Assembly: GCA_037387885.1 (NCBI GenBank)
Contig: JARRKQ010000001.1
Span: 491 to 64,490 of the forward strand
Length of the DNA: 64,000 nucleotides
Origin: Alphaproteobacteria bacterium
GTDB taxonomy: Bacteria > Pseudomonadota > Alphaproteobacteria > JAPULJ01
Direction of reading: 5' to 3'
Part shown: piece by piece, positions 1-17,681 of the stretch
Position numbering within the stretch: position 1 is the first letter of the stretch
How the letters are laid out: every line of letters starts with the position of its first letter
The notes under the pieces: generated by a model
What the model was told of the DNA's origin: nothing
Seen by the model: the letters and a program-made list of their open reading frames with translations, nothing else
Databases searched by the model: none
Position numbers and translations under genes: made by a program

Positions 1-1941
1 CGAAAGGCAGTTCGACTGCTCGACACAGTCGCCGCAGCCCTCGCAGACGTCCTGGTTGATGAAGATGCGCTTGTCGGGATCGGGGAAGGTGCCGCGCTTC
101 CTGCGGCGGCGCTTTTCGGCGGCGCAGGTCTGGTCGTAGATGAGCGCGGAGACGCCCGGCCAGTCGCGCAATTCGCGCTGCACCTCGTCGAGGTCGCGGC
201 GGTGATGGAAGGTGACGCCCGGCGCGAAGTTGGAGCCGATCGGATACTTGTCGGGCTCGTCGGAGACGACGGCGATGCGATCAACGCCCTCATCGGCGAC
301 CTGGCGCGAGATCATCGGCACGGAAAGCGGGCCGTCGACCGGCTGTCCGCCGGTCATGGCGACGGCGTCGTTGAAGAGGATCTTGTAGGTGATGTTGACG
401 CCGGCCGCCTTGGCCGCGCGGATCGCCATCAGGCCGGAATGGTAGTAGGTGCCGTCGCCGAGCGACTGGAAGACATGGTTGGTCGTGGTGTGCGGCGCCT
501 GGCCGATCCAGGTCGCACCCTCGCCGCCCATATGGGTCCAGCCGTAAACGTCGCGGTCCATCCAGACGGCCATGAAGTGGCAGCCGACGCCGCCGACCGC
601 GCGGCTGCCCTCGGGCACGCGCGTTGAGGTGTTGTGCGGACAGCCGGAGCAGAAATAGGGCGTACGGGCGACGATCGCCTCCGAGCCCTTGTGTCCGCCG
701 ATGCTGTCGAGGAACGCCATGCGTTCCTTGAGCGCGCTGTCGTCGCCGTGCATCGCCAGCAGGCGTTTGCCGATGGCGCGGGCAAGCTGCTCGGGTGTGT
801 GCGTGCCGTAAGGCGGCAGCAGCTCGGCGCCCGTCTCGTCGGTCTTGCCGATGATGCGCGGGGATTTCTCGCGGCTGTTGTAGAGCAGCTCCTTCATCTG
901 GGTTTCGATGAAGGCGCGCTTCTCCTCGATGACGAAGACCTCCTCGAGCCCCTTCGCCAGGGTCTGCGCGATGTTGGGCTCGAGCGGCCAGATCATGCCG
1001 AGCTTGAGGAGCCGGATGCCGAGGGCCTCGGCGCGCTTCTCGTCGATCCCGAGAATGCGGAGCGCGCGGCGCACGTCGAGATAGCTCTTGCCGGCGGCGA
1101 CGATGCCCAGGCGCGCCTTGGGCGCGTCGAGCACGATCCTGTTGAGCCCGTTGGCGCGGGCATAGGCCTTGGCGGCCTCGAGCTTGTATTTGTACTGACG
1201 CGTCTCGGCCGGGATGGCCATCTCGCCGACGCGGGTGCTCATGCCGCCCTCGGGGATTTCCAGATCGCGGGGGCGGATGATCTTCGGCTCGTCGGGGTCG
1301 AGGGTGAGCGTGCCCGAGGCCTCGACCGTGTCGGCCTCGGTCTTGTAGCCGACCCAGAGGCCGGAGGTGCGCGAGAGCCCGAAGCCGAGCAGGCCCATTT
1401 CGATGAATTCGGTCATGCCCGCCGGATAGATCACCGGCATCAGCGCATCCATGAAGCTGAACTCGCTGGGCAGCGCGAAGGCCGAGGAGGTGGCGCCGTG
1501 GTCGTCGCCGACGATGGCGAGCACGCCGCCCTTCTCGAAGGCGCCGGCCTGGTTGCCGTGCTTGATCGCGTCCATCGAGCGGGCGAGGCCGGGGCCCTTG
1601 CCATACCAGATACCGAAGACGCCGTCATACTTCGCGCCGGGGAAGAGGTTGACCTCCTGCGTGCCCCAGATCGAGGTGGCAGCGAGGTCTTCGTTCACCC
1701 CTGGCAGGAAGGTGATGTTGTGCTGCTTCAGCAGCGCTTTCACGCGCCAGAGCTCCATGTCGTAGCGCCCGACGGGTGAGCCGCGATAGCCGGAGATGAA
1801 GCCGGCGGTGTTCAAGCCCGCCGCGGCGTCGCGTTTGTGCTGTTCGATTGGCAGGCGGACGAGCGCCTGCAGGCCGGACATGAAAACCTGACCGCGTTCG
1901 GCCAGATACTTGTCGTCGAGGGTGACAACATTCGACGTCAT
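1..1941 (-). CDS. Indolepyruvate/2-oxoacid:ferredoxin oxidoreductase family protein (fused IorA/IorB type). N-terminal ~646 codons; the C-terminus runs off the window edge
   Basis: Minus-strand translation from ATG at 1939-1941, with GGAGG 6 nt upstream, reads MTSNVVTLDDKYLAERGQVFMSGLQALVRLPIEQHKRDAAAGLNTAGFISGYRGSP. That is the canonical IOR-family N-terminus. Near position 1 it reads ...DQTCAAEKRRRRKRGTFPDPDKRIFINQDVCEGCGDCVEQSNC, a ferredoxin-like Cys cluster. The gene is absent from the ORF track only because it is open at the window edge. The plus-strand ORFs 202..627 and 634..1779 are antisense artefacts. Confidence 0.8.
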   Translation of the reverse strand, partial: MTSNVVTLDDKYLAERGQVFMSGLQALVRLPIEQHKRDAAAGLNTAGFISGYRGSPVGRYDMELWRVKALLKQHNITFLPGVNEDLAATSIWGTQEVNLFPGAKYDGVFGIWYGKGPGLARSMDAIKHGNQAGAFEKGGVLAIVGDDHGATSSAFALPSEFSFMDALMPVIYPAGMTEFIEMGLLGFGLSRTSGLWVGYKTEADTVEASGTLTLDPDEPKIIRPRDLEIPEGGMSTRVGEMAIPAETRQYKYKLEAAKAYARANGLNRIVLDAPKARLGIVAAGKSYLDVRRALRILGIDEKRAEALGIRLLKLGMIWPLEPNIAQTLAKGLEEVFVIEEKRAFIETQMKELLYNSREKSPRIIGKTDETGAELLPPYGTHTPEQLARAIGKRLLAMHGDDSALKERMAFLDSIGGHKGSEAIVARTPYFCSGCPHNTSTRVPEGSRAVGGVGCHFMAVWMDRDVYGWTHMGGEGATWIGQAPHTTTNHVFQSLGDGTYYHSGLMAIRAAKAAGVNITYKILFNDAVAMTGGQPVDGPLSVPMISRQVADEGVDRIAVVSDEPDKYPIGSNFAPGVTFHHRRDLDEVQRELRDWPGVSALIYDQTCAAEKRRRRKRGTFPDPDKRIFINQDVCEGCGDCVEQSNCLS

Positions 1942-2031: not shown

Positions 2032-3225
2032 TCATGCTGATATCCCGGTCTCGCGAAGGTGCTTGCACTCGGCCTCCGAGAAACCGGCTTCCATTAGGAT
2101 CTTGTCCGTATGCTCGCCGTATTTGGGCGGAAAGGCAATGTCGCGTTTTGCATAGGGCATATCCACCGCCATGGGTTGCATGCGGATTTCCTTGCCGTCC
2201 GGCAGATGCGTGCGGGTGAGCTTCGATGCAATCGCCGGCATCTCGCGCGCCTGCGGCACGGTGTTGATGCGTGCGTTGGGAATGCCCGCGGCGGCGAATT
2301 CGGCCTCGACCTCGTCGGTCGTGCCGGTCGATGTCGCGTCGCCCAGCTCCTTGTAGATCGCGTGGCGGTCGGCATAGCGCTCGTCGTTGGTGGTGCGGTT
2401 GTCGCGCGCAAGGCCGGCAAAGCGCGGGATCGCGGTCAGGCGCCGCCACTGGGTGTTCGAGCCCATCGCCATGTAGATGAAGCCGTCGCTGGTCGGATAG
2501 ACATTGGTCGGGATGAACTTGCGGTGCGCGTTGCCCCAGCGCGAATACTCTTCGGGATCGGCGTCGAAGTCGATGAGCGGCAGGGTGGTGATGAGCCACG
2601 AGGCGGCGGCCTGCGTCATCGAGACGTCGATACGCTTGCCCTCGCCGGTCTCGGCCTGCTCCGCGAGGCCGAGCATCACGTTGGCGTAGACCTCGTCGCC
2701 GGCTTTGAGGTCGATGATCGGGATGCCCGAGAGCGTCGGCGGGCCGTCCGGAAACCCGGTGGTCTCCATGAAGCCGGTCTGCGCCTGGATCGCCGGATCG
2801 TAGCCGGGGGTCTTGGGATAGTCCGGGCCCATCGCCGAGATGCCGGCCCAGATGAGCTTCGGGTTGATCGCCGACAAGGTCTCGTAGTCGATGCCGAAGG
2901 GCTCGTAGCGGCCGGGCAGGGTGTTGCAGCAGAAGACATCGACCTCGAGCTCGCGCACGATCTTGTGCAGCGCTTCGCGGCCCTCTTCCGATTTGAGGTT
3001 GAGCGCGATCGCCTCTTTGCCGCAGTTGGGCGCGACGAAATAGGAGTGGCGGTCGTCGTCGAGGACCTTCGAGCCGATGTACCGGTTGGGGTCGCCCGGA
3101 TGCGCATCGCCGTCGAGCGGCGTCGACTCGAGCCGGATCACCCGCCAGCCAAGCTGCACGAAGCGCAGCGTCGCGTACGTCATGGAGAGCGCCTGCTCCA
3201 TGGAGAGGACGGTGCGGGGCTTCAT
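2032..3225 (-). CDS. Family III CoA-transferase (CaiB/BaiF type)
   Basis: 397-aa ORF. The block [70 protein letters not shown]...[54 protein letters not shown] matches the conserved core of family III CoA-transferases. The ATG is at 3223-3225. Confidence 0.85.
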
Positions 3226-3329
3226 GGGCGGACCTTAACCTGGATAAACATGAGACCCTCGTCCTTCGACAAGCTCAGGATGAGGCCCTCATGCCGAGCC
3301 TGTCGAAGCATGTGGGCCGGGATGACTTG

Positions 3330-5654
3330 TTACTCCGCCGCCTGGCGCATCCGCTGCTCGCGCTCGAAAAGGCCGCGGGCGAGCTTCTCGGGCGAGACAG
3401 GCGGGTGGTCGATGCGCACGCCGGTGGCGTTGTAGACGGCGTTGCCGACGGCCGGCGCGATCACGATGGTCGGAAGCTCGGCGATGCCCTTGGCGCCGGC
3501 GGGGCCTTCGGAGTCCATGGTCTCGATGAAGGTCATGTCGATGCGTGGCATCTCGGGCGCGGTGAAGAGGTGATAGTCGCGGAAGAACGGGTTCTTCACG
3601 ATGCCCTTCTCGATCTTCAGATCTTCGGAGAGGGCGTAGCCGAGACCCATGGCGATGCCGCCCTCGATCTGGCCCTCGAGGCCGGTGAGGTTGATGACGC
3701 GGCCGACATCCTGGACCGACCACACGGTCTCGACCTTCACTTCGCCGGTGAAGGTGTCGACGATCACCTCGGCGACGTGGACGGCGTTGGAGTACGCGGC
3801 CGACATGTCGCCCACATGGTTCTCGTCCTCCGATTCGGTCGGCGGCTCGTAGTAGTCGGACTGGATGACGAGCTGCGCGGCCTCGCCGGCGAAGTGCATC
3901 TGGCGGAGCAGCCGGTCGAGCGGCATCACCGCGACGCCGTCTTCTGCCTGCACGACATGGCCGCCGCGGAGATCGAGCGCGTCGGCGGAGACGTTCGACT
4001 GCTTGGCCGCCGCATCGAGGATCTGCGCCTTGGCCTTCTGGGCGGCGCGCTGGGCCGACTTGCCGGCGATATAGGTGGTGCGGCTGGCATGCACGCCGAC
4101 ATCCCAGGGCCCGGTCGCGGTGTCGTTGGCGACGATGGTGACGTCGCGCATCGGAATGCCGAGCTCCTCGGCCATGATCTGCGCGATCACCGTGTCGATG
4201 CCCTGGCCGATCTCGCTCGCGCCGGTGATCACGGTGATGCGGGCGTAGTCGTCCATCTTGATGATGGTGCCGCAGCCGTCGGATTTGTGGATCTTGGCGC
4301 CGCCGGCATTGTGCAGCGAGGCGGCGATACCGATGCCGCGCTTGTAGCGCTCGGGGCTGTCCCAGCCGTCCTTGTACTTGGCCCACTTCGCCAGGAAATC
4401 GGATTTCTCCGCCGCGGTGTTGAGGCAGCCGACGAGGTCGATGCAGCCGAGGTTCGAGCCCTGCGGCGTGATCTCGTCGGGCTCATTGGCGTTCTTCAGG
4501 CGGAACTCGATCGGGTTGAAGCCGCCGATCTCCGCCATCTTGTCCATATGCGTCTCGATCGCCCAGGTCGCCTGGACGTTGCCGTAGCCGCGGAAGGAGC
4601 CGGCGAAGGGGTTGTTCGTGTAGACCGCCTTGGCGCTGTAGTGGATGTGCGGCACCTTGTAGTGCGAGGTGATGGTCCGCATCGTGACGTAAGGCGTGGT
4701 CGCGCCCCACGAGGTGTAGCCGCCGTTATTGAGCAGCGTGTCGACCTCGCGAAACGTAAGCGTGCCGTCCTTCTTCATACCCGCCTTGATCTTGAACTCG
4801 ACCGGCTGGCGGGTCGGCGAGGCGATAAACTCCTCCTCGCGGCTGAAGATGACCTTGACCGGGCGGCGGGTTGCCTTGGCGAGCAGCACGCAGATCGGCT
4901 CGTAGGGATAGACGTCGAGCTTGGAGCCGAAGGCCCCGCCGACGGGCGGCTGGACGATGCGCACGTCGCCCGGATGCATGCCGAGCGAGGGGGCGATGTC
5001 CATCTTCATGATGAAGGGATACTGCGACTGCGAGTAGAGCGTGACGCGGCCGTCGGGGTCGATGTCGGCGACGGCGCAGGACACGCCCATGTTGCAGTGG
5101 GTGACGTAGTGGACGTTGTAGTCGCCCTCGACGATGAAGTCGCTCTCGGCCTTGCCCTGCTCGATATCGCCGTGGTCGAAGTGCTGCGCCATGGCGATGT
5201 TGTCGGGCCGCTCCTCGTGGATCACCGGGGCGCCGTCCTTGAGCGCGTCCTCGCATTCGAAGACGGTCGGCAGATCCTCGTATTCGACCGTAATGAGTCG
5301 CAGCGCCTCGTCGCAGGCTTCCTCGCTCTCGGCGGCGACGGCGGCGATCTCGTCGCGGATGCAGCGCACCCGGTCCTTCTTGAGCGGCGGGTTGTCCTTC
5401 AGGACGCCGATGCCGAAATCAGGCGTGTCCGCGCCGGTCAGCACGGCGTGCACGCCGGGGACCGCTTTGGCCTTTTCGGTGTCGATCCGCAGGATCTTGG
5501 CGTGCACCCGATCGGTGCGCAGGATCTTGCCGTAGAGCATGCGCGGCAGGACCATGTCGTTCACGTAGCGCGTGCGGCCGGTCGTCTTGTCGGGCGCGTC
5601 CATCTTGCGCACGCGCTTGCCGATGATGGTGTCCTTCTCGATGATCTTGGTCAT
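3330..5654 (-). CDS. Xanthine dehydrogenase / aldehyde oxidase family molybdopterin-binding large subunit
   Basis: 774-aa ORF (MTKIIEKDTIIGKRVRKMDAPDKTTGRTRYVNDMVLPRMLYGKILRTDRVHAKI...). It is the same architecture as CoxL/XdhB-type Mo-hydroxylase large subunits. Genes for the 2Fe-2S and FAD subunits lie immediately upstream in the same operon. Confidence 0.85.
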   Translation of the reverse strand: MTKIIEKDTIIGKRVRKMDAPDKTTGRTRYVNDMVLPRMLYGKILRTDRVHAKILRIDTEKAKAVPGVHAVLTGADTPDFGIGVLKDNPPLKKDRVRCIRDEIAAVAAESEEACDEALRLITVEYEDLPTVFECEDALKDGAPVIHEERPDNIAMAQHFDHGDIEQGKAESDFIVEGDYNVHYVTHCNMGVSCAVADIDPDGRVTLYSQSQYPFIMKMDIAPSLGMHPGDVRIVQPPVGGAFGSKLDVYPYEPICVLLAKATRRPVKVIFSREEEFIASPTRQPVEFKIKAGMKKDGTLTFREVDTLLNNGGYTSWGATTPYVTMRTITSHYKVPHIHYSAKAVYTNNPFAGSFRGYGNVQATWAIETHMDKMAEIGGFNPIEFRLKNANEPDEITPQGSNLGCIDLVGCLNTAAEKSDFLAKWAKYKDGWDSPERYKRGIGIAASLHNAGGAKIHKSDGCGTIIKMDDYARITVITGASEIGQGIDTVIAQIMAEELGIPMRDVTIVANDTATGPWDVGVHASRTTYIAGKSAQRAAQKAKAQILDAAAKQSNVSADALDLRGGHVVQAEDGVAVMPLDRLLRQMHFAGEAAQLVIQSDYYEPPTESEDENHVGDMSAAYSNAVHVAEVIVDTFTGEVKVETVWSVQDVGRVINLTGLEGQIEGGIAMGLGYALSEDLKIEKGIVKNPFFRDYHLFTAPEMPRIDMTFIETMDSEGPAGAKGIAELPTIVIAPAVGNAVYNATGVRIDHPPVSPEKLARGLFEREQRMRQAAE

Positions 5655-5688
5655 GGAGCGGGTTCCCTAGCGCATGAGGTCGATTGAT

Positions 5689-6165
5689 TCAGGCGGTGGC
5701 CGTTCGCCCGGCGGCGATGACGGCGTCGATGATCTTCTTGTAGCCGGTGCAGCGGCAGACATTGCCTTCGAGGCCGCGCCGGATCTCGTCTTCCGACATG
5801 TTCGGATTGCGGTCGAGCAGATAGCGGATCTGCATGATCATGCCGGGCGTGCAAAAGCCGCACTGCACCGCGCCATGCTCGATGAAGGCGTCCTGCACGG
5901 GATCGATGCCGGCGTCGGTCCACAGGCCTTCGACCGTGAGCACCTCGCGGCCCTCGAGATCGACCGCGGGCATGAGGCAGGAATTGAGCGACTGGCCGTC
6001 CACGATCACGGTGCAGGCGCCGCATTCGCCCTCGCCGCAGGCGAGCTTGGCGCCGGCGAGGTCGAGGCGCTCGCGCAGGATCGTCAGCGCCGAGGCGCCG
6101 ACCGGAACGCCGACGCGGGTCGTCCGGCCGTTCAGTGTGAAAGTAACGTCAACCTGAAGCGGCAT
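5689..6165 (-). CDS. (2Fe-2S)-binding small subunit of the molybdenum hydroxylase
   Basis: It carries the two cluster motifs CGEGECGACTV and CGFCTPGMIMQ...CRCTGY. The likely start is MPLQVDVTFTLNG at 6165, and the long upstream extension in the ORF track is probably not translated. It overlaps the stop of the FAD subunit gene by 17 nt. Confidence 0.85.
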   Translation of the reverse strand: MPLQVDVTFTLNGRTTRVGVPVGASALTILRERLDLAGAKLACGEGECGACTVIVDGQSLNSCLMPAVDLEGREVLTVEGLWTDAGIDPVQDAFIEHGAVQCGFCTPGMIMQIRYLLDRNPNMSEDEIRRGLEGNVCRCTGYKKIIDAVIAAGRTATA

Positions 6166-7039
6166 GTCCGAGCTCCTGCATGAGATAGGCGCGTGCGAGG
6201 CGGCGGCGGTACCAGGCCGAGCCGCGATGGTCGTCGATCGGCGCGATCTCGGCGTCGAGCGCCTCGGCGGCGGTGTCAATTAAGGCATCATCGATGCTCT
6301 TGCCCTCCAGCGCGGCCTCGGTCTTGCGGGCGCGGATCGGCGTGGGCGCCACGGCCCCCAGCGCGAGCCGCACGTCGCGCAACGTTCCACCCTCGACATA
6401 GGCAGCGAAACCGAGCGAAACCAGGGCGATTTCGAGCGCCGGCCGCGGGCCGGTCTTGGCGAAGCCGCCATAAAAATTCTTGCCGGGAACCGCGAATTCG
6501 ACGCCGGTGATGAGCTCCTCCGGTGCGATCACGGTCTTGCCAGGGCCGGCGAAGACCTCGTTTATCGGCACGGTGCGCGTCTTGACCTTGCCGGCCTTCA
6601 TGGAGGCGAGCGAGACCTCGGCATCGAGGCAGAGCAGGGGGATCACGAAGTCGGCCGCGGGCGAGGCGTTGGCGATATTGCCGCCGACGGTCGCCGCATT
6701 GCGAATTTGTACGCTTGCGAACTTATCGGCCGCAGCTCGAAGCAGCGGGACTTTCTTGGCCAAATCCTTGTGCTCGAGCACCTGCGTCATGGTGACGAGC
6801 GCGCCGAGACGGATGCGGCCCGCCTTCACCTCGATGCCCGCAAGCTCGGGGACGTTCTTAATGTTGACGAGGCGCTTGCCGACCGCGCGGCCCGGCTCGT
6901 CCTTCTGGACCCAGAGGTCGGTGCCGCCGGCAACGCAGGTCGCGGCGCCATCCGCCAACGCGTCGAGCGCTTCGTCGAGCGAGCGGGGCGCAGCGTATTC
7001 CTCGATCGCCGGCGGTTGTTGGAGCTGGGGAAGGGTCAT
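6149..7039 (-). CDS. FAD-binding subunit of the molybdenum hydroxylase (CoxM/XdhA-like)
   Basis: 296 aa with a FAD-binding PCMH-type domain (AGGTDLWVQ...TVGGNIANASPAAD). At this length it lacks the Cys-rich insertion seen in 4-hydroxybenzoyl-CoA reductase HcrB. Confidence 0.85.
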   Translation of the reverse strand: MTLPQLQQPPAIEEYAAPRSLDEALDALADGAATCVAGGTDLWVQKDEPGRAVGKRLVNIKNVPELAGIEVKAGRIRLGALVTMTQVLEHKDLAKKVPLLRAAADKFASVQIRNAATVGGNIANASPAADFVIPLLCLDAEVSLASMKAGKVKTRTVPINEVFAGPGKTVIAPEELITGVEFAVPGKNFYGGFAKTGPRPALEIALVSLGFAAYVEGGTLRDVRLALGAVAPTPIRARKTEAALEGKSIDDALIDTAAEALDAEIAPIDDHRGSAWYRRRLARAYLMQELGHAASG

Positions 7040-7066
7040 TGCGGTCCTTTGTCTCTTTACGCGTGC

Positions 7067-8692
7067 CTAGAACCGCATCGGTTCCTGATAGCGGCCGAAC
7101 GCTTCCGTCAGCACGGCGGTGATCTCGCCGACCGAGGCGTAAGCCTTCACCGCATCCATGATCGCGGGCATCGTGTTGGCGTCGCCCTCGGCGGCGGCCT
7201 TAAGGTCGGCCAGCGCCTTGTCGACGGCGGCCTGGTCGCGGGTGGCCTTGACGTCGTTGAGGCGGCCGATCTGCCGGTCGGTGTCTTCCTTCTTGTAAGG
7301 ATGCATCTCGACCTCGGGCTCGTCCTCCTCGATCTCGTAGCAGTTGACGCCGACCTTGCGGTATTCGCCGGTCTCGAGGTCCTTCTGGTGCTCGTAAGCC
7401 TGCTTGGAGACGTGGGCCTGGATCTCGCCGTCGGCGATCATCTTGACGATGCCGCCCTTGTCGTCGAGCTCCTTCATGATGCGGACCATCTCGGCTTCCA
7501 TCTGGTTCGTCAGCGTCTCGACGTAGTAGGAGCCGGCGAGGGGGTCGACCGTATCGGTCATCCCCATCTCCTCGATCAGGAGCTGCATGGTGCGCAGCGA
7601 GATGCGCTGCGCCTTTTCCGACGGGATCGTGTACGCCTCGTCGTAGCAGCAGAGCGCGATGGTCTGCGCGCCGGAGAGCACGCAGCCGAGCGCATAGTAG
7701 GCGCCGCGCATGATGTTGTTCTCCGGCTGCTCGATGGTGAGGCCCGCGCCGCCGCCGCCGGCGATCATGCGCAGCCACATCGATTTGGGGTTCTTGGCGC
7801 CGTACTTGTTCTTGACGATCTTGGCCCAGAGGCGGCGGCCCGCGCGGAACTTGCAGACCTGCTCGAAGAACTGGCCGAAGATGTTGTAGTTGAACGACAT
7901 CCGGTAGGCGAACTCGTCGATGTCGAGCCCGCGCTTCAGCACCTCGTCGAAGTATGCGCTGGCGATGGCGAAGCCGTAGGCCATCTCTTCCGTCGGCGTC
8001 GCGCCCGATTCGCGGATGTGATAGCCGCAGACCGAGACGGGCGAGTAGAGCGGCGCGTGCTTGGCGCAATACTCCATCGTGTCGGCGACGAGGCGCACCG
8101 AGGGCTCGACCGGATAGATCCATGTGCCGCGGCCGACGAACTCTTTCAGAATGTCGTTCTGGCAGGTGCCGCGGAGCTTCGAAAGATCGAAGCCGCGTTT
8201 CTCGGCCATCGCCAGATACATCGCGATCATGATCGCGGCGGTGCCGTTGATGGTGAGCGAGACGGTGATGTTCTCGATGTCGATACCGTCGAAGGCGATC
8301 TCGACGTCTTTCAGCGTGTCGATCGCCATGCCGACGCGGCCGACCTCGCCGCCGGCCATCGGATCGTCGCTGTCATAGCCGCACTGGGTCGGCAGGTCGA
8401 AGGCGACGTTGAGGCCTGTATTGCCGGTCTCGATCAGATATTTGAAGCGCTTGTTCGTGTCCTCGGCGTTGCCAAAGCCCGTGTACTGGCGCATCGTCCA
8501 TGGCCGCTTGCGGTACATCATGTCGTGGATGCCGCGCGTGAACGGGTATTCGCCCGGCTTGCCGATTCCGTCGGGCGCCCCTTCATCGGGCAAGCGGGTC
8601 GCCTCCACGTCCTCTTCGGTATAGATCGGCTTGATCTCGATGCCCGACTCGTTGCGGCGGGTATCGGCGTCCGGTTTACGCTGCACGTTCAA
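7067..8692 (-). CDS. Methylmalonyl-CoA-mutase-family acyl-CoA mutase, large catalytic subunit (split form, no fused B12 domain)
   Basis: 541 aa. Conserved blocks PFTRGIHDMMYRKRPWTMRQYTGFGNAED and GLNVAFDLPTQCGYDSDD, then TCQNDILKEFVGRGTWIYPVEPSVR and GYHIRESGA. The substrate-contact positions are Tyr (RQYTGF) and Arg (FVGRGTW), as in methylmalonyl-CoA mutase, not the Phe/Gln pair of isobutyryl-CoA mutase. The start is a TTG at 8690-8692 with AAGGAG 7 nt upstream. Confidence 0.85.
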   Translation of the reverse strand: MNVQRKPDADTRRNESGIEIKPIYTEEDVEATRLPDEGAPDGIGKPGEYPFTRGIHDMMYRKRPWTMRQYTGFGNAEDTNKRFKYLIETGNTGLNVAFDLPTQCGYDSDDPMAGGEVGRVGMAIDTLKDVEIAFDGIDIENITVSLTINGTAAIMIAMYLAMAEKRGFDLSKLRGTCQNDILKEFVGRGTWIYPVEPSVRLVADTMEYCAKHAPLYSPVSVCGYHIRESGATPTEEMAYGFAIASAYFDEVLKRGLDIDEFAYRMSFNYNIFGQFFEQVCKFRAGRRLWAKIVKNKYGAKNPKSMWLRMIAGGGGAGLTIEQPENNIMRGAYYALGCVLSGAQTIALCCYDEAYTIPSEKAQRISLRTMQLLIEEMGMTDTVDPLAGSYYVETLTNQMEAEMVRIMKELDDKGGIVKMIADGEIQAHVSKQAYEHQKDLETGEYRKVGVNCYEIEEDEPEVEMHPYKKEDTDRQIGRLNDVKATRDQAAVDKALADLKAAAEGDANTMPAIMDAVKAYASVGEITAVLTEAFGRYQEPMRF

Positions 8693-9083
8693 GGGTCTTC
8701 TCCTTGATGAAATCGACGATTTCGTTGAGCTTCGAGCCGGTGTTGAACACCGCGTCGAGCCCGATCTTGCGCAAGGCCTCGTGGTCCTCGCGGGGCACGT
8801 TGCCGCCGATCACCCAGAGGCGGTCGTCGAGCCCGTATTCCTTCAGCAGTTCGGCAATGCGCTCGCAGATCGGAATATGCGAGCCGGAGAGGATGGAGAG
8901 CGCGATCACGTCGACATCCTCGTCGCGGGCGGCGTTGGCGATCATCTCCGGGCTCTGGCGTAGGCCCGTATAGATGACCTCGAAGCCGGCATCGACCAGC
9001 GCGCGCACCACGATCTTGGCCCCGACGTCATGGCCGTCGAGGCCGGGCTTGGCGACCAGGATGCGGACTTTCTTGTCAGCCAT
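8676..9083 (-). CDS. Cobalamin-binding small subunit of the split acyl-CoA mutase
   Basis: 135 aa (MADKKVRILVAKPGLDGHDVGAKIVVRALVDAGFEVIYTGLRQSPEMIANAA...). It has a DxHxxG-type B12-binding motif (GLDGHDVG). Its 3' end overlaps the start of the large subunit gene by 17 nt. Confidence 0.85.
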   Translation of the reverse strand: MADKKVRILVAKPGLDGHDVGAKIVVRALVDAGFEVIYTGLRQSPEMIANAARDEDVDVIALSILSGSHIPICERIAELLKEYGLDDRLWVIGGNVPREDHEALRKIGLDAVFNTGSKLNEIVDFIKEKTLERAA

Positions 9084-9101
9084 CGTGCTGCGCTCCGATA
9101 T

Positions 9102-10802
9102 CTATTCCGCCGCCTGCGACGCCGGCTCGTAGCCGTAGACTTCGCGGGCGGTGTCTTCTGAAATGATGCCGTTCTTGACCTCTTCGGCGAGCTTGGTGCG
9201 GTCGCGCTTCTTGGGATCGCCGTAGCCGCCTCCGCCGCCGGCCTGCTGGAAATAGACCGTGCCCTTCGGCAGTCCGGTAATGAGGTCCTTGTTGAGCGGC
9301 ACCACGTCGTTGCCGTCGGGGGTGGTGAGCTTGATCGTGTTGAGCGTGCCGTCGCCGCCGCCGAAGAGCCCGAAGGCGGGCTCGTAGTCGCCGTCGCCGA
9401 AGGTCACGAGCTGGGTGTTGTCGGAGCCGAATTCGTAGACCGTCTCGATGCCGATTCCGCCGCGCCACTGTCCGGCGCCGGCCGAGTCGGTCAGATATTC
9501 GTGCTTGATCAAGCGGTGCGGCGACTGCTGTTCGAACATCTCGTAGTCCTGGTCGAGCACGCCGCCCGAGGCGTCGATCATACCGATATGGTCGTAGCCG
9601 TCGGTGCCATTCATGGCGCCGGCGCCGCCCTTCATGCCCATGAAGAAGATGTCGACGTAGTCGTCGTCCTTCTCCTCGTCGAAGCCGGTGGTGAGCGACG
9701 AGAGCAGATTGTTCCAGCCGGCCGTCACGCGGTCGGGAATGGCCGGCGCGAGTGCGCGCTGGATCGCGTCTGCGTTGGGCGGGCAGAGGTGGTTGCCGAA
9801 GGTGGTCGCCGCCGGATAGCCGGCGTTCAGGATCGTGCCTTCGGGAATGATGATCTCCAGCGGCGCCAGCATACCCTCGTTATGCGGAATGTCGGGATTG
9901 ACCATCTGGAGCAGCGTCAGCGCCGTGGCGCTCGCGCTCGAGGTATAGGTGCCGTTGACGAAGCCGTTGGTGCGCGCATCGGTCTTGGAATAGTCGAAGG
10001 TGATCGCCTTGTCCTTGACCTCGATGTCGACGCGGATGGTGTATTTGGAGCCCTTGTTCTTGCCGTCGTAATAGACGTAGCCCTCGCCCGAGTAATTCCC
10101 GTTCGGGATCGAGCCGATCTCGGCTTCCATCATCTTCTGCGTGGCATCGAAAAGCGCCAACTTGTGCCGCTCGAAGACGTCGAGCCCGTGTTTTTCCAAC
10201 AGCGCCACCATGCGCCGCGCGCCGACATTGGTCGCGCCCATCTGCGAGCGCATGTCTTCCTGGACGATGTCGAAGCGGATATTGGCGAAGATGAGGTCCC
10301 AGACATCCTTGCGGAAGGTGCCGCCGTCATAGACCTTGACCGGCGGGATGCGGATGCCTTCCTGCCAAACCTCTACGGCGTTGGGGTTGTAGCCGCCAGC
10401 GACCGCGCCGCCGATATCGGCCTGGTGGCCCTTGACCGCCGTCCAGGCGACCAACTTGTCCTCAAAGAAGATCGGCCGGAACACGGCAACGTCGTTGTTC
10501 TGGTTGCCCATCGAGAAGACGTCGTTGTGGAAGATGACGTCGCCCGGCTTAAAGTCACCCTCGAAATACTCGATGATGTATTTGCACACCGGCGCCAGCG
10601 AGAAGGCGAGGATCGGCAGGTTCTCGGTCTGCTCCAGCATCCGGCCTTCGCCGTCGTAGAGCCCGGTCACGAAATCCTTGGCCTCGCACAAGATGGGCGA
10701 GCGCGCGGTTTGCTCGACCGACATGCTCATCTCGTCGGTGATCGACTTGAAGGCGCGCGCGAAGACCGACAGCAGGATCGGATCGATATCGGATTTGCTC
10801 AT
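9102..10802 (-). CDS. Hydantoinase B / oxoprolinase family protein (HyuB-like)
   Basis: 566 aa, starting MSKSDIDPILLSVFARAFKSITDEMSMSVEQTARSPILCEAKDFVTGLYD, a typical HyuB N-terminus. It overlaps the hyuA stop by 4 nt (ATGA). Confidence 0.85.
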   Translation of the reverse strand: MSKSDIDPILLSVFARAFKSITDEMSMSVEQTARSPILCEAKDFVTGLYDGEGRMLEQTENLPILAFSLAPVCKYIIEYFEGDFKPGDVIFHNDVFSMGNQNNDVAVFRPIFFEDKLVAWTAVKGHQADIGGAVAGGYNPNAVEVWQEGIRIPPVKVYDGGTFRKDVWDLIFANIRFDIVQEDMRSQMGATNVGARRMVALLEKHGLDVFERHKLALFDATQKMMEAEIGSIPNGNYSGEGYVYYDGKNKGSKYTIRVDIEVKDKAITFDYSKTDARTNGFVNGTYTSSASATALTLLQMVNPDIPHNEGMLAPLEIIIPEGTILNAGYPAATTFGNHLCPPNADAIQRALAPAIPDRVTAGWNNLLSSLTTGFDEEKDDDYVDIFFMGMKGGAGAMNGTDGYDHIGMIDASGGVLDQDYEMFEQQSPHRLIKHEYLTDSAGAGQWRGGIGIETVYEFGSDNTQLVTFGDGDYEPAFGLFGGGDGTLNTIKLTTPDGNDVVPLNKDLITGLPKGTVYFQQAGGGGGYGDPKKRDRTKLAEEVKNGIISEDTAREVYGYEPASQAAE

Positions 10803-12910
10803 GCCACGGCCTCCAGACTGGGTTTGACCAGCTCTTCGCGGCCCTTCTGGTAGACCGCAAACGAGCCGTACTGGTCGCAGACGCAGTCGTAGGACTGGGT
10901 GACCAGGATCGAGGTGTTTTCCTGTTCGATGATCGCGGGCCCCGTGATCCGATAGCCGAACTTGGTGTTGTGGCCATCATAGACCGGGACGGTCGCCGCT
11001 TCGCCGGTTTCGGGCACGATGATCTTGCGCTCGCCCTTGAGCGCGGGCGAGGGGTCAGCCCCGGCATAGCTCTCTTGGGTGTAGGCCGGCTTGTCGGTGC
11101 GGCCGACCGCCTGCAGGCGGACATTGATGATCTCGACCGGCGTGCCCTGCTCCTCCAGCGAATAGCCGTAGAGCCGGTTGTGCTCGGCGTGGAAGAGCGC
11201 CTTGATCGCCTCGCCGTCCTGCGCCTCGACGGCGCTGATCGGTGCCTCGTGCGTGACCTCGTGATACTGTTTGGCGTAGCGCGCATCGAGCTTGAGGATG
11301 TAGTCGCGCCGATCCTTTGAGATGCTCTCGCTGTCGAGCAAAGCGTCGCCCTCCGCGCGCATCTCGGCGATCAGCGCGTTCAAAGTCTGCCAGTCGCCGT
11401 CGTCGATGCGGCGGACATAGCTGCGCACGAAGTCGTGCTTCAAGTCCGACATCAGCATGCCGGCGGCGCAAAAGATCGAGCTTTCGCGCGGTACGATGAG
11501 CAGTGGGATTTCGAGCTCCTCGCCGATCATGCAGGCGTGGTTGGGGCCGGCGCCGCCGGCGACCACCATCGGGAACTCGCGCGGATCGAAGCCGCGCTTG
11601 ATGGTGATCTCGCGCACGCCCTGGGCCATATTGGTGTTGATGACGCGGTACATGCCGAGCGCGGCTTCCTCGACCGACATGCCGAGCGGCTTGGCGATCT
11701 TCTCTTCGATCGCCTTGCGCGCCGCATCGACGTCGAGCTTCAGTTTGCCGCCGGCGAAGTAGCCCGGATCGAGATAGCCCAGCACCAGATCGGCATCGGT
11801 GCAGGCCGGCAGCTCGCCGCCCTGGCCGTAGCAGACCGGGCCCGGATCGGCGCCCGCGCTTTGCGGGCCCATGCGCAAGAGGCCGCCTTCGTCGATCCAG
11901 CCGATCGAGCCGCCGCCGGCGCCGATGGTGACGATGTCGAGCATCGGCAGCGCGATACGGTAGCGGTTGATCTCGCCCTCGTTCGCCGTGATCGGCACGC
12001 CGTCGAGTACCATCGCGGCATCGAAGCTGGTGCCACCCATATCGACGGTGAGGCAGTTCTTCTGGCCGTGCGCCTCGGCGTAGCCGAGCCCGGCGACCGG
12101 ACCCGCCGCCGGGCCGGAGAGCAGCGTCATCGCCGCCGTCGTCTGCGCCGTCTCGGGCAGCACCACGCCGCCATTCGACTGCATGATCAAGAGCACGCCC
12201 TTGAAGCCGGTATCGGCCAAACGCTTCATCAGCGCGTCGATGTAAGCGCGCAGCTTGGGGCCGTTGTACGAATTCAGAACCGTCGTCGAGACGCGGTTAT
12301 AGAAGCGGATCGAGGGCAACAGCTCTGCGGAAACCGTGAGATAGGCGTCCGGCATTTCGCGTGCGACGAGCTCGCCCGCAGCCTTCTCATGCGCGGGATT
12401 GGCGAAGGCGTTCATGAAGCAGATCGCCACCGCCTCGACGCTCTCGGCCTTGAAGGTCTCGATCGCGGCGCGGACATCGTCGAGCTCGAGGCCTTCGATC
12501 TCGCGGCCCTTGCGGTCGAGCCGGCCGCGCACGCCGGCGCGCAGATAGCGCGGCACCAGCGGCGGCACGTTGGTGTAGCGGTTGTTGTACTGCTCCTCGC
12601 GGATGCCGCGGCGCATTTCCAAAGCGTCGCGCACGCCCTCGGTGGTGATGAGGCCGGACTTGGCGCCCGTGCGGGTCAGCGTCGCGTTCGTCGTCACCGT
12701 GGTGCCGTGGACGATCGTGTCGATCGTCGGTGCGAAGGCCTCCAGCGTGCTGCCGGCGGCCTTGGCGATGTCGGTCAGCCCGTTGATCAGGCCGATGGAG
12801 GGATCCTTAGGCGTCGACAGCGTCTTGAAGATCTGCGGTTCCGCGTCGTCCGAGACGACCAGGAAATCCGTGAAGGTGCCGCCAACGTCGATGCCGATCT
12901 TGGTCGTCAC
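10799..12910 (-). CDS. Hydantoinase A / oxoprolinase family protein (HyuA-like)
   Basis: 703 aa. The GTG start reads MTTKIGIDVGGTFTDFLVV, followed by the ASKHA-fold ATPase motifs typical of hydantoinase A. A GGAAGGGA ribosome-binding site lies upstream. No acetone-carboxylase gamma subunit gene follows it. Confidence 0.85.
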   Translation of the reverse strand: MTTKIGIDVGGTFTDFLVVSDDAEPQIFKTLSTPKDPSIGLINGLTDIAKAAGSTLEAFAPTIDTIVHGTTVTTNATLTRTGAKSGLITTEGVRDALEMRRGIREEQYNNRYTNVPPLVPRYLRAGVRGRLDRKGREIEGLELDDVRAAIETFKAESVEAVAICFMNAFANPAHEKAAGELVAREMPDAYLTVSAELLPSIRFYNRVSTTVLNSYNGPKLRAYIDALMKRLADTGFKGVLLIMQSNGGVVLPETAQTTAAMTLLSGPAAGPVAGLGYAEAHGQKNCLTVDMGGTSFDAAMVLDGVPITANEGEINRYRIALPMLDIVTIGAGGGSIGWIDEGGLLRMGPQSAGADPGPVCYGQGGELPACTDADLVLGYLDPGYFAGGKLKLDVDAARKAIEEKIAKPLGMSVEEAALGMYRVINTNMAQGVREITIKRGFDPREFPMVVAGGAGPNHACMIGEELEIPLLIVPRESSIFCAAGMLMSDLKHDFVRSYVRRIDDGDWQTLNALIAEMRAEGDALLDSESISKDRRDYILKLDARYAKQYHEVTHEAPISAVEAQDGEAIKALFHAEHNRLYGYSLEEQGTPVEIINVRLQAVGRTDKPAYTQESYAGADPSPALKGERKIIVPETGEAATVPVYDGHNTKFGYRITGPAIIEQENTSILVTQSYDCVCDQYGSFAVYQKGREELVKPSLEAVA

Positions 12911-12980
12911 GGTGCCATCCCTTCCGGTTTATTGGATCACACAAACACAGCCAGTCTTCGCCAGCTTTCGAGGTGACTAT

Positions 12981-13016
12981 AACACAATATTGTTGGACGT
13001 CCAACAATATTGTGTT
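12981..13016. promoter_or_regulatory. Perfect 36-bp palindrome in the divergent hyuA/ech promoter region; a putative MarR operator
   Basis: AACACAATATTGTTGGACGTCCAACAATATTGTGTT equals its own reverse complement (checked base by base). It is AT-rich in a high-GC context, and it lies between the hyuA start (12910) and the crotonase start (13135). Confidence 0.6.
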
Positions 13017-13134
13017 TGCCGGCATGCCCAAGCCGGCCGCTTGCGGTCGCCCGCGGCGCCCGGTAGCGTCGGGCATCATATGGGAGACAACCGGGCGGCA
13101 AAACCACCGGATTAGAAAGGGAGCGAGGCGAGCC

Positions 13135-13926
13135 ATGGCGGAGAATGCATTGCTGTTCGAGGTGCGCGACGGGGTTGCGCGGATCACGCTGAACCGGCCC
13201 GACGAGGCCAATCCGCTAGCGGTCGAAAGCGCCAAGAAGCTGTTCGACTATGCGATCGAGATCGACCAGGATCCCAGCATCCGCGCCGTGATCTTGACCA
13301 GCACCGGCCGGTTCTTCTCCGCCGGCGGCGACCTCAAGTTCTTCCACGACAATGCCGACCGGGTCGGCCATGTGCTGAAGGAAACGACGAGCTATCTGCA
13401 CGCCGCGCAGTCGCGCTTCGCGCGCATGGCAGCACCAGTCGTAGTCGCGATCAACGGGATTGCGGCGGGCGGCGGGGCGAGCATCGCCTTTTGCGGCGAC
13501 ATCGTTCTGGCGGCGCAGTCGGCGACCTTCACCATGGGCTACACGGCGGCCGGCCTCTCGCCGGACGGTTCCTCATCCTACTACCTGCCGCGGCTGGCGG
13601 GCCTGCGGCGGGCGCAGGAGCTCTTCCTGACCAATCGCCGGTTCACCGCGGACGAGGCGGCCGAATGGGGCCTCATCACCCGCGTCGTGCCGGACGATAA
13701 GCTGATGGAGGAGGCCGACGCTCTGGTCGCGCAGCTGGCCAAGGGGCCGACCCAGGCCTTCGGCTCGGTGAAGGCGCTGTTGGCGGATACGTTCACCAAC
13801 ACGCTGGAAACCCAGCTGGAGATGGAGACCCGCCACATCGCGGCCAACGGGGCGGGGCATGACGGCCGCGAAGGTGTTGCGGCCTTCGTGGCCAAGCGCA
13901 AGCCCGACTTCAAGGGCGTGCAATAG
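13135..13926 (+). CDS. Enoyl-CoA hydratase/isomerase (crotonase) family protein
   Basis: The start reads MAENALLFEVRDGVARITLNRPDEANPL, preceded by a GGGAG ribosome-binding site. The oxyanion-hole region reads FFSAGGDLK ... AINGIAAGGG. The ORF-track start at 12973 is an upstream extension and probably not translated. Confidence 0.85.
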   Translation: MAENALLFEVRDGVARITLNRPDEANPLAVESAKKLFDYAIEIDQDPSIRAVILTSTGRFFSAGGDLKFFHDNADRVGHVLKETTSYLHAAQSRFARMAAPVVVAINGIAAGGGASIAFCGDIVLAAQSATFTMGYTAAGLSPDGSSSYYLPRLAGLRRAQELFLTNRRFTADEAAEWGLITRVVPDDKLMEEADALVAQLAKGPTQAFGSVKALLADTFTNTLETQLEMETRHIAANGAGHDGREGVAAFVAKRKPDFKGVQ

Positions 13927-14676: not shown

Positions 14677-16026
14677 ATGACGCCGGACCTGCTGGATCGC
14701 TATAGCGGCCCCGTGCCGCGCTACACGAGCTATCCGACCGCCCCGCATTTCTCCGCGGAGGTGGGGCCGGATACGTATCGTGCATGGCTCGCCAAGCTGG
14801 ACCGCGATGAGCCGCTGTCGCTTTACGCGCATATCCCGTTTTGCCGCACGCTCTGCTGGTTCTGTGGCTGCCATACGCGGGCGGTCAATCGCTATTCGCC
14901 GGTCGAGGCGTATCTCGAAGCGCTGAGTGCCGAGGTGGCCTTGGTGTCGGAGGCGATCGGCAAGAATGCGCCGGTCGCGCATCTTCATTTCGGCGGCGGC
15001 ACGCCGACCATCCTGAGCTCGGCGGATTTCGCCCGTTTGATGGATCTGTTCCGGGCCCGCTTCCAGCTCCTGCCCGAAGCGGAGATCAGCGTGGAGATCG
15101 ATCCGCGCGGCATGGGCCGGCAGGAGATGCGCGGGCTCGCCGATGCCGGGGTCACGCGGGCGAGCCTGGGCGTGCAGGATCTCGACCCGGCCGTCCAGCA
15201 GGCGGTCAACCGCATCCAGCCGCGCGCGATGACCGAGCAGGTCGTCGACTGGTGCCGGGAGCTCGGGATAGGCGGCGTCAATATCGACCTCATGTATGGC
15301 CTGCCGCACCAGACCGTCGACGGCGTGGCGGCGACGGCGCAAGCGATGGCCGATCTCGTCCCCGACCGGATCGCCATCTTCGGCTACGCCCACGTGCCCT
15401 GGATGAAGCCGAACCAGAGGCTGATCGACGAAACGGCGCTGGCGGGTGCCTGGGAGCGCTGGCGCCAGGCGGAAGCGGCGGCCGAGGTGCTGGTCGCGGC
15501 CGGCTATCGCCCGATCGGGCTCGACCATTTCGCCCGCGACGACGACGCCTTGGCGCAGATGGAGGCGGCCGGCCGGCTGCACCGGAACTTCCAAGGCTAT
15601 ACCGACGATCAGGCGCGTACGCTGATCGGGCTCGGCGCTTCCTCGATCGGCGATCTGGGGCAGGGCTATGTCCAGAACGATCCCGATGTCCGGAACTATA
15701 TGACCACAGTGGCGGACGGCCGGTTCGCCACCGTCAAGGGCGTGGCGCTCGACGCCGAAGACCGCCTGCGCCGGGCCGTGATCGAGCGGCTGATGTGCGA
15801 TTTCGAGGTCGATCTGGGTGCGCTCGCCCGGTCCTATGGGATGACGCCCGATTGCTTCGCGGCCGACAAGGCGGCGCTCCATTCGCTCGCCTCCGATGGG
15901 CTGGTCGAGGTCGCGGGCGACCATGTGCAGGTCGTGGAGGCGGGGCGACCCCTCATTCGGGTGGTCGCGGCGGCCTTCGATGCCTATCTCGGCCGCGGCG
16001 AAGGGCGCCATTCGCGGGCTGTTTGA
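14677..16026 (+). CDS. hemN: Oxygen-independent coproporphyrinogen III oxidase (radical SAM)
   Basis: MTPDLLDRYSGPVPRYTSYPTAPHF...SLYAHIPFCRTLCWFCGCH carries the CxxxCxxC radical-SAM motif, and the HemN-type C-terminal domain follows. Confidence 0.9.
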   Translation: MTPDLLDRYSGPVPRYTSYPTAPHFSAEVGPDTYRAWLAKLDRDEPLSLYAHIPFCRTLCWFCGCHTRAVNRYSPVEAYLEALSAEVALVSEAIGKNAPVAHLHFGGGTPTILSSADFARLMDLFRARFQLLPEAEISVEIDPRGMGRQEMRGLADAGVTRASLGVQDLDPAVQQAVNRIQPRAMTEQVVDWCRELGIGGVNIDLMYGLPHQTVDGVAATAQAMADLVPDRIAIFGYAHVPWMKPNQRLIDETALAGAWERWRQAEAAAEVLVAAGYRPIGLDHFARDDDALAQMEAAGRLHRNFQGYTDDQARTLIGLGASSIGDLGQGYVQNDPDVRNYMTTVADGRFATVKGVALDAEDRLRRAVIERLMCDFEVDLGALARSYGMTPDCFAADKAALHSLASDGLVEVAGDHVQVVEAGRPLIRVVAAAFDAYLGRGEGRHSRAV

Positions 16027-16841: not shown

Positions 16842-17681
16842 TCAAATCTCAATGGCGCTCGCCCGGTTGCGGATCGCGCGCAGCACGCTGTAGGCGGTGA
16901 GCGAGGAGGTCTTGGGGTTCTCCGGCAACGGGTTGCCGCGCAGCTCCATGGTCATCGAACCAAAAGCCCCGTCCGCTTCGATCAGATGGATATTGCCGCC
17001 GGCCTCCGGGTCGGCGATCAGCCGAACGGCGGTGTCGGTGAAGCCCACGCCCGCGAGGGCGACCGTGGCGGCGACATTGGCGTTCTTGGGATAGAGCCGC
17101 GCCGCTTCGTCGGCAGGGCCCGTATAGAGCTCGGTCGCTTCCGTGAGCGCGTTAAGATCGGCGACCTCCTCGGCGGGCGAGCCGGCCCAGGCCTGTGGCG
17201 GCTTGCGCGAAGTGTAGCGGACCTGCGTGAGCCCGCCTTCGCGCGCGGCCGCAAGCGCATCGACGCCGCCGATGGCGCCCGGCGCGATCAGCATCCGCCC
17301 GCTCTCCGCCGCGGCGAGGAGACGGTTGTAGAGCACGGGATCGGCAAGCGCGCCGACCGAGACCACCAGCAGATCATGGCCCTGTTCCAGCGCGGCGACA
17401 CCGTGCTCGGCCAGACCCTCATGGCCCGCGACCTCCACGACCAGTCCCGGCGGGGTGGGTAGTTGGTCGATGGCGCTCACCACGCTGACGGCGTCGCCGA
17501 CCTCGTCCTGGATCGCGGCCACGCGCGCCGGGCGCATGACGATGGCGGCGATCTGGGCGTGCTGCTCCTTGGCGAGGCGCGCATGGACATAGCGCCCGAT
17601 CGCGCCGTAGCCGATCAGGGCAATGTCCAGCGGCACGCTCGGGTCCACGCCTGGCTCCACATTGGGGTCGATGTCATCCAT
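16842..17681 (-). CDS. Aspartate dehydrogenase (NadX) family NAD(P)-dependent dehydrogenase
   Basis: LDIALIGYGAIGRYVHARL is a Rossmann motif, and the overall match is to L-aspartate dehydrogenase-like proteins. The start is ambiguous: ATG at 17717, ATG at 17681, or GTG at 17648. The last has a GGAG ribosome-binding site and avoids overlap with the upstream gene. Confidence 0.65.
   Translation of the reverse strand: MDDIDPNVEPGVDPSVPLDIALIGYGAIGRYVHARLAKEQHAQIAAIVMRPARVAAIQDEVGDAVSVVSAIDQLPTPPGLVVEVAGHEGLAEHGVAALEQGHDLLVVSVGALADPVLYNRLLAAAESGRMLIAPGAIGGVDALAAAREGGLTQVRYTSRKPPQAWAGSPAEEVADLNALTEATELYTGPADEAARLYPKNANVAATVALAGVGFTDTAVRLIADPEAGGNIHLIEADGAFGSMTMELRGNPLPENPKTSSLTAYSVLRAIRNRASAIEI

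Follow-up and report, generated by a model that had tools for sequence, protein, structure and literature searches.

We analyzed a split acyl-coenzyme A (CoA) mutase encoded on the minus strand of a 64,000-nucleotide stretch of contig JARRKQ010000001.1 (hereafter the window), from the metagenome-assembled genome (MAG) of an uncultured alphaproteobacterium. We concluded with good confidence that the protein pair is the orthologue of IaaG and IaaH, the arylsuccinyl-CoA mutase of the anoxic indoleacetate (iaa) pathway. Both this pathway and the part that the mutase plays in it date from a 2012 proposal, restated in 2021, and the present finding adds no new concept. The two genes of the pair are as follows.

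7067..8692, minus strand: acyl-CoA mutase large subunit (IaaG-like; substrate-binding, TIM-barrel), 541 residues, TTG start, no fused B12 domain
8676..9083, minus strand: B12-binding small subunit (IaaH-like), 135 residues, ATG start

The pair belongs to the adenosylcobalamin (AdoCbl)-dependent acyl-CoA mutase superfamily, both defining domains of which were present: an MM_CoA_mutase-type (beta/alpha)8 domain and a Rossmann-like cobalamin domain with the DxHxxG motif, which gives cobalt its histidine ligand. The large subunit matched PF01642 (MM_CoA_mutase) with 647 bits over residues 15-533 (profile positions 3-512 of 512) and TIGR00641 with 614 bits, and it aligned over its full length with the solved mutases 4r3u, 2xij, 6oxc and 1req. 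The small subunit matched PF02310 and TIGR00640, and its D16-G-H18-D-V-G21 (DGHDVG) corresponds to the base-off/His-on cobalamin motif DxHxxG. An earlier reading of the letters alone (the sequence-only reading) had described a 541-residue large subunit without a fused B12 domain and a 135-residue B12-binding subunit encoded upstream with a 17-nt overlap. Both points were borne out: no cobalamin domain was found in the large subunit by Pfam and NCBIfam profile search, and the open reading frame (ORF) coordinates place the overlap at 8676-8692. The proposed TTG start is likewise credible: it is preceded at 7 nt by AAGGAG, 10 of 13 orthologues carry ATG-AAC at the corresponding position, and the NCBI product for the same MAG (MEJ2119095.1) has the identical 541 residues. 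Translation might instead begin at a GTG two codons further on, although the practical difference is trivial.

Orthology and gene context of the mutase pair

The large subunit was 69% identical to its orthologues in Aromatoleum toluclasticum and in an Aromatoleum sp. MAG, and the small subunit was approximately 60% identical to the Aromatoleum protein. The orthology call was based on these A. toluclasticum and Aromatoleum sp. proteins, without the A. aromaticum EbN1 sequence; the 90%-identity cluster of the Aromatoleum orthologues comprised A. evansii, A. petrolei, A. toluolicum, A. tolulyticum, A. toluvorans and Azoarcus sp. CIB. Ebenau-Jehle et al. reportedly described the anoxic indoleacetate pathway and the iaa operon in A. 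evansii and A. aromaticum in 2012. IaaGH has been named phenylsuccinyl-CoA/benzylmalonyl-CoA mutase, acting between IaaL and IaaF; both of the latter have been characterised, IaaL as a phenylsuccinyl-CoA transferase that performs an intramolecular CoA transfer and IaaF as a decarboxylating dehydrogenase (PMC8360864). The window pair resembled IaaG/IaaH of A. aromaticum and A. evansii (PMC8360864) in its split subunits, its overlapping genes and its active-site signature, and its neighbours resembled those of the Aromatoleum iaa operon in including hydantoinase A/B, a three-subunit molybdenum (Mo) hydroxylase and an IaaL-like CoA-transferase. The host differs, being an uncultured alphaproteobacterium and not a denitrifying member of the Rhodocyclales.

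To compare gene context, we scanned one genome per species, which yielded 80 mutase loci, and built a tblastn presence/absence matrix with the window proteins and the proteins of a canonical relative. The iaa set comprised hydantoinase A/B, the B12 subunit, the three Mo-hydroxylase subunits and the family III CoA-transferase. Every mutase of at least 59% identity with flanking DNA stood beside at least part of this set, and most of them also adjoined an acyl-CoA dehydrogenase, an AMP-ligase and a thiolase. Eight matches of at most 50% identity were without iaa context.

Six loci (L011, L021, L034, L051, L060 and L064) departed from this arrangement. The flavin adenine dinucleotide (FAD) and [2Fe-2S] subunits of the Mo-hydroxylase were not found in them, and hydantoinase A and B were only 36-40% and 28-31% identical, respectively. 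A weak match to the Mo large subunit was present in L051 (39%) and L060 (44%), and the sequence available downstream in L034 is limited. All six loci retain the mutase and the dehydrogenase, and all except L051 the CoA-transferase. In these Mo-hydroxylase-poor loci, another precursor may enter the same mutase chemistry by a second pathway.

In a neighbour-joining (NJ) tree of 160 sequences, the clade containing the window protein was monophyletic in 93 of 100 bootstraps, and in 100 of 100 when its sister P0122 was included. This sister form (688 residues, 52% identity; locus L088, region 2692-9969) has its B12 domain fused at the N-terminus and carries the clade signature described below. Its gene lies in an iaa-like cluster, with an acyl-CoA dehydrogenase on one side and a Mo-hydroxylase and CoA-transferase on the other, and L088 encodes the FAD and iron-sulphur (FeS) subunits of this hydroxylase as one fused protein. 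The closest clade after that, P0124 (48% identity), is without the signature and adjoins a carboxyltransferase. As far as these sequences define it, the family boundary is sharp between P0122 and P0124. Members of the clade were found in MAGs labelled as many phyla, including a Thermoplasmatales-labelled archaeon. Public databases labelled all of them, the Aromatoleum proteins included, no more specifically than 'methylmalonyl-CoA mutase family' or 'acyl-CoA mutase large subunit family', and the IaaG-, IaaL- and IaaF-like proteins tested stayed below the cut-off of every NCBIfam model.

These labels raise the alternative of a methylmalonyl-CoA mutase (MCM) or ethylmalonyl-CoA mutase (ECM) of central metabolism, serving propionate or acetate assimilation and lying by chance near aromatic-catabolic genes. 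The equivalents of MCM Tyr89, Arg207, Gln197 and His244 are all present, the public annotation reads 'methylmalonyl-CoA mutase family protein', and the comparison set had no labelled ECM by which an ECM clade could be excluded directly. Nevertheless, the clade did not cluster with MCM: it was separate from the solved MCMs and from HcmA in the NJ tree, the large subunit was only 37-41% identical to the solved MCMs (47% to HcmA), and its score against the MCM equivalog NF006944 was 521.6 bits, against a cut-off of 876. The conserved H328/Q330/T331, F287 and N366 of MCM are all replaced, and the B12 subunit is separate, whereas the catalytic chains of solved MCMs are fused. Moreover, the gene appears to be translationally coupled in a nine-gene operon of a composition conserved across phyla, and no MeaB/ArgK-type chaperone was seen among the approximately 50 window ORFs scanned against Pfam (about ten short ORFs lay outside the scan). 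Judged by its score and by the loss of canonical barrel residues, the window protein is not an MCM sensu stricto.

ECM (Ecm/MeaA) is the closest mechanistic analogue and retains Tyr/Arg, with a methyl substituent on the radical-centre carbon in place of the aryl group considered here; unlike the window mutase, it consists of one fused polypeptide and serves central carbon assimilation, as Erb et al. are said to have described in 2008. An ECM model is missing from NCBIfam, a tblastn search of annotated plasmids gave no sequence identifiable as ECM, and neither of two fused candidates, P0200 and P0239, could be recognised as one; both lie outside the clade and are without ccr-type context. The P0200 cluster encodes a radical-SAM protein, an AIR-synthase-like protein, a flavin monooxygenase and a nitrilase-family protein. 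Split architecture, clade monophyly and uniform iaa context argue against ECM, and we regard a central-metabolic MCM or ECM as very unlikely.

Substrate contacts and active-site signature

Residue equivalence was established from phmmer alignments to PDB chains and from an independent MAFFT alignment, in each case with four solved mutases, and the two agreed. The index in the deposited Propionibacterium shermanii chain is the literature number minus one.

Y70, codon 8483..8485, minus strand: P. shermanii chain 88, Tyr89; invariant in 75 of 75 clade members
Q178: P. shermanii chain 196, Gln197
R188, codon 8129..8131, minus strand: P. shermanii chain 206, Arg207; invariant in 75 of 75 clade members
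Y224: P. shermanii chain 242, Tyr243
H225: P. shermanii chain 243, His244

All 75 clade members keep Tyr/Gln/Arg/Tyr/His in these five catalytic columns. In MCM, crystallography and mutagenesis have established that Tyr89 and Arg207 bind the carboxylate and that His244 contacts the thioester carbonyl. The sequence-only reading had recognised the conserved Tyr, Arg, Gln and His in the motifs RQYTGF (residue 68), FVGRGTW (185), TCQNDILKE (176) and GYHIRE (223); both alignments confirmed these assignments, and alignment to the solved mutases showed no misplaced Tyr or Arg position. Since the motifs lie inside the 647-bit family match, chance occurrence is no concern. The clade-specific Gly187 and Gly189 stand on either side of Arg188, in place of the Val and Asn of MCM.

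The same columns bear on the alternative that the substrate is an uncharged acyl group, as in mutases of the isobutyryl-, 2-hydroxyisobutyryl-, 3-hydroxybutyryl- or pivalyl-CoA type. HcmA (4r3u) was the top PDB match of the large subunit (509 bits, 47% identity), and HcmB (4r3u_C) was the second-best solved relative of the small subunit, after 2yxb; HcmAB is thus the closest solved structure, with the same split alpha/beta architecture and the same type of B12 subunit. However, HcmA carries Ile and Gln in the columns of Tyr70 and Arg188. These fall at 90 and 208 once an 11-residue tag offset is removed, and match the published specificity residues Ile90 and Gln208. HcmA also keeps the H-x-Q-T and S-L-H-T-N motifs that are replaced in the window protein, and its substrate is without a free carboxylate. 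The isobutyryl-CoA mutase (ICM) type carries Phe/Gln at the positions of Tyr89 and Arg207, and the representatives with this ICM-like pair formed groups other than the window clade, every member of which keeps the carboxylate pair. The earlier argument against specificity of the ICM, 2-hydroxyisobutyryl-CoA mutase or pivalyl-CoA mutase type therefore holds, and a mutase of uncharged acyl groups is extremely improbable.

What the Tyr/Arg pair says about the substrate is limited. By comparison of sequences it would point only to a substrate with a free carboxylate, and it says nothing on aryl substitution. Among 132 full-length superfamily representatives, obtained from an exhaustive search of 1.84 billion cluster representatives, the pair was present in 67, and it was also common to canonical MCMs and to eight unrelated split mutases (L077-L084). 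Because half of the superfamily representatives carry it, the pair is not diagnostic of an aryl substrate. Thus, the carboxylated substrate that the sequence-only reading had predicted from Tyr/Arg stood, but the step from this pair to an arylsuccinyl substrate did not; the fit to an arylsuccinyl-CoA mutase was instead supported by the Aromatoleum orthology and the iaa synteny, which are evidence beyond that reading's own. MCM His328, Gln330 and Thr331 were kept in only 26 of the 67 Tyr/Arg representatives.

A second group of residues distinguished the clade. Eighteen positions were clade-invariant and absent from all 12 comparison sequences (L077-L084 and the four solved mutases); in P. shermanii numbering these are S114N, V141M, L152A, Y210W, P214V, S241C, A248S, F287N, E297Q, T327M, H328I, T331G, S362T, T365L, I372Y, A373T, Q387M and I446V. 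Further clade replacements were Q330G/A, N366C, V206G and N208G. All signature residues are unchanged in the window mutase. The corresponding motifs are as follows.

IaaG clade [FY][IV]GRG[TA]W; MCM FMVRNTY
IaaG clade [RK]MIA[GA]GGGxGLT; MCM RTHSQTSGWSLT
IaaG clade S[FY]N[FY][ND]I[FHY]G; MCM SFFWGIGM
IaaG clade QT[MIS]ALC[CS][YF]DE; MCM QSLHTNSLDE
7736..7768, minus strand: glycine-rich loop M309-IAGGGGAGL-T319, replacing MCM T-HSQTSGWSL-T (His328, Gln330, Thr331)

Within the loop, I310, G313, G314 and G315 are invariant. In the window protein, MCM His328, Gln330, Thr331, Phe287 and Asn366 have become Ile, Gly, Gly, Asn and Cys, respectively. Many of the signature positions alternate along barrel strands 2 and 5-8 in a way that would make them face the lumen at the C-terminal strand ends, the region that in MCM accommodates the acyl moiety and the adenosyl group. 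The change from His/Gln/Thr/Phe/Asn/Val to Gly/Gly/Gly/Asn/Cys/Gly would enlarge the cavity by the aryl-bearing carbon. Compared with MCM (P. shermanii MutB, 1req; human MUT, 2xij), the window pair therefore shares Tyr89, Arg207, Gln197, Tyr243, His244 and the DxHxxG motif, and presumably the radical 1,2-shift of the thioester group, but it differs in at least 18 clade-specific replacements and in lacking the fused B12 domain of MCM. The loop varied widely across the 132 representatives, an indication that many specificities among dicarboxylic acyl-CoA mutases are still uncharacterised.

Operon structure and a possible variant pathway in this lineage

The mutase pair lies within a nine-gene minus-strand operon with the order HydA-HydB-B12-mutase-FAD-FeS-Mo-CoA-transferase-oxidoreductase, and two divergent genes lie beyond its first gene. 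Apart from the mutase pair, the genes are as follows.

10799..12910, minus strand: hydantoinase/oxoprolinase A-type (PF05378, PF01968, PF19278); first operon gene; 67% identical to A. toluclasticum
9102..10802, minus strand: hydantoinase B-type (PF02538); 77% identical to the Aromatoleum counterpart
6149..7039, minus strand: Mo-hydroxylase FAD-binding subunit (PF00941, PF03450)
5689..6165, minus strand: Mo-hydroxylase [2Fe-2S] subunit, 158 residues (PF01799, PF00111)
3330..5654, minus strand: Mo-hydroxylase molybdopterin-binding subunit, xanthine dehydrogenase family (PF01315, PF02738, PF20256)
2032..3225, minus strand: family III CoA-transferase, IaaL-like (PF02515); 65% identical to the Aromatoleum counterpart
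1..1941, minus strand: fused indolepyruvate:ferredoxin oxidoreductase family, N-terminal 647 residues; runs off the window start
12973..13926, plus strand: crotonase family, PaaG-like (PF00378); divergent; likely start near 13135, giving 263 residues as in L001
13859..14557, plus strand: MarR-family regulator (PF01047, PF12802); start probably near 14057 (L001 homologue 166 residues)

The iaa core set (2032-12910, minus strand) was 56-77% identical to its Aromatoleum counterparts. The operon genes are separated by overlaps or by gaps of at most about 100 nt; the 17-nt overlap of the mutase pair recurs between the FAD and FeS subunits (6149-6165), and HydA and HydB overlap by 4 nt, which suggests translational coupling along the operon. 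For the [2Fe-2S] subunit, the mechanically called ORF reaches 6279, and the length of 158 residues was set by the gene calls of L001, a 94% relative that was also used for the oxidoreductase comparison, together with a tblastn match at 5692-6165. The oxidoreductase fragment was 91% identical to the 1155-residue L001 protein, which scored 1573 bits against the cut-off of 816 for NF009589. No cobalamin riboswitch or other Rfam family was found in the 64-kb window, and a promoter scan did no better than chance (2 sites, against 1.1 expected).

The gene content around this core varied among relatives. In canonical iaa clusters, the ligase lies upstream of hydantoinase A. In L001 (oxidoreductase region 16908-21412) and L002, the CoA-transferase is followed by the oxidoreductase and then by a DUF169 gene, and both crotonase and MarR are present, as they are in L087; L086 has only MarR. 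The identities to the window mutase were as follows.

L004: 81%; canonical cluster
L085: 82%; canonical cluster
L087: 84%; crotonase and MarR, as in the window
L086: 86%; oxidoreductase variant with an IaaF-like gene

The IaaF-like gene of L086 (16598-17737) is 63% identical to the canonical one and lies on the opposite strand, just past the oxidoreductase gene. Weaker oxidoreductase homologues (49-58%) occurred in L013, L029, L033 and L047.

Several points weigh against assigning the pair to the iaa pathway. The searchable literature yielded no report of an assayed IaaGH, and the function of the reference IaaGH is for this reason a pathway inference. The NJ tree was built without a labelled ECM. 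The AlphaFold model of the large subunit, computed from a 20-sequence alignment of close relatives, was too poor for a check of pocket widening (the mean pLDDT, the predicted local distance difference test score, was 60.6, and the score was below 50 over residues 306-393). In addition, IaaF and IaaB homologues are present in most other clade loci, and the 64-kb window contained no IaaF-type acyl-CoA dehydrogenase, IaaB-type ligase or thiolase, which leaves the reaction following the mutase without an evident local enzyme. An IaaF encoded elsewhere in the genome may explain the local absence, as L086 keeps an IaaF-like gene.

The missing genes also bear on the possibility that the mutase, with the same fold and in the same clade, has a different physiological substrate in this lineage, namely a differently substituted arylsuccinyl- or alkylsuccinyl-CoA, and that the operon may degrade tryptophan, indolepyruvate or another N-heteroaromatic acid. 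Besides IaaF, IaaB and thiolase, no MaoC hydratase homologue was found in the 64 kb; the oxidoreductase and DUF169 genes follow the CoA-transferase in L001 and L002; and the crotonase and MarR pair is specific to the lineage. Furthermore, L011 and L021, with 10 kb on both sides, are without Mo-hydroxylase and have distant hydantoinase homologues, which suggests reuse of the mutase core. Against this, the core set is intact at the identities to Aromatoleum given above, all of the mutase signature residues are unchanged, and L086, which is 86% identical and has the oxidoreductase, retains an IaaF-like gene. An input of indolepyruvate would, moreover, give indoleacetyl-CoA and hence the same mutase substrate. 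We therefore consider a different substrate unlikely, and retain the assignment to IaaG/IaaH.

The window cluster nevertheless differs from the Aromatoleum iaa operon: it lacks genes for beta-oxidation and for the IaaB ligase and IaaF dehydrogenase, and it has a fused oxidoreductase and the divergent crotonase and MarR genes, with DUF169 seen in L001. Indolepyruvate oxidoreductases convert indolepyruvate to indoleacetyl-CoA; as the oxidoreductase would yield indoleacetyl-CoA directly, a ligase would be unnecessary. The gene content thus suggests that this lineage feeds tryptophan-derived indolepyruvate into the pathway. The PaaG-like crotonase possibly substitutes for part of the downstream pathway. 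Its TIGR02280 score (218 bits) was under the cut-off, its closest solved relatives were PaaG-type isomerases, and the isomerase P-D motif is kept; a role as a methylmalonyl-CoA-decarboxylase-like stand-in for IaaF was considered and found to be unsupported. A broader proposal would join two claims: that the iaa pathway is re-wired here, with the oxidoreductase replacing IaaB and a crotonase in place of the IaaF step, and that the glycine-rich loop together with F287N/N366C constitutes the first sequence rule for aromatic-accepting mutases. We put this joint proposal forward only tentatively, and on balance doubt it.

Beyond the cluster, a HemN-like radical-SAM gene (14677-16026, plus strand) lies by the cluster in a neighbourhood that is conserved in L001 (1869-3922), where a small cytochrome c-like gene is next to the HemN-like gene. 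Oxygen-dependent aromatic catabolic genes occupy 19411-30884, 7-18 kb from the 'anoxic' cluster, and include two Rieske oxygenases (23699-24808 and 29466-30884), glyoxalase/extradiol-type proteins, a cupin, a hydrolase, a short-chain dehydrogenase/reductase (SDR) and an IclR regulator. An aerobic or facultative lifestyle is probable for the host.

Proposed reaction and significance

We propose that the Mo-hydroxylase and the hydantoinase-like enzyme would convert indoleacetyl-CoA, which may arise from indolepyruvate via the co-encoded oxidoreductase, to an arylsuccinyl thioester, with the hydantoinase A-type subunit as the candidate lactam ring-opening enzyme. The IaaL-like CoA-transferase would then set the correct regioisomer. 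By analogy with the known mutases, the pair is predicted to interconvert 2-(2-aminophenyl)succinyl-CoA and (2-aminobenzyl)malonyl-CoA, and by analogy with HcmAB we infer an alpha2beta2 quaternary structure. AdoCbl would be held base-off/His-on by His18 of the small subunit, and homolysis of the Co-C bond would give the 5'-deoxyadenosyl radical; this radical would abstract a substrate hydrogen, the CoA-thioester carbonyl would migrate to the adjacent carbon, and the hydrogen would be returned. This would be the same 1,2-shift as that between succinyl- and methylmalonyl-CoA or between methylsuccinyl- and ethylmalonyl-CoA, with an aryl group on the migrating-terminus carbon. Formally, it would be the ECM reaction with aryl replacing methyl, and the malonyl-side radical would be benzylic. 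Tyr70 and Arg188 are expected to hold the free carboxylate, and His225 and Gln178 the thioester, as in MCM, and the space for the ring would probably come from V206G, N208G, Y210W, F287N, H328I, Q330G, T331G and N366C (P. shermanii numbering).

These results are of use in improving annotation, in supplying a testable residue signature and in describing a variant operon. Many database labels would be corrected if the clade were recognised from its signature together with its gene neighbourhood, and the signature offers concrete residues for engineering B12 mutases toward bulky substrates. If the tentative sequence rule is true, dozens of other Tyr/Arg clades with non-canonical loops would be unexplored substituted-succinyl-CoA mutases. 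With the pair assigned to IaaG/IaaH, the clade would serve as a marker of anoxic catabolism of auxin or the tryptophan side chain across MAGs that bear the labels of many phyla.

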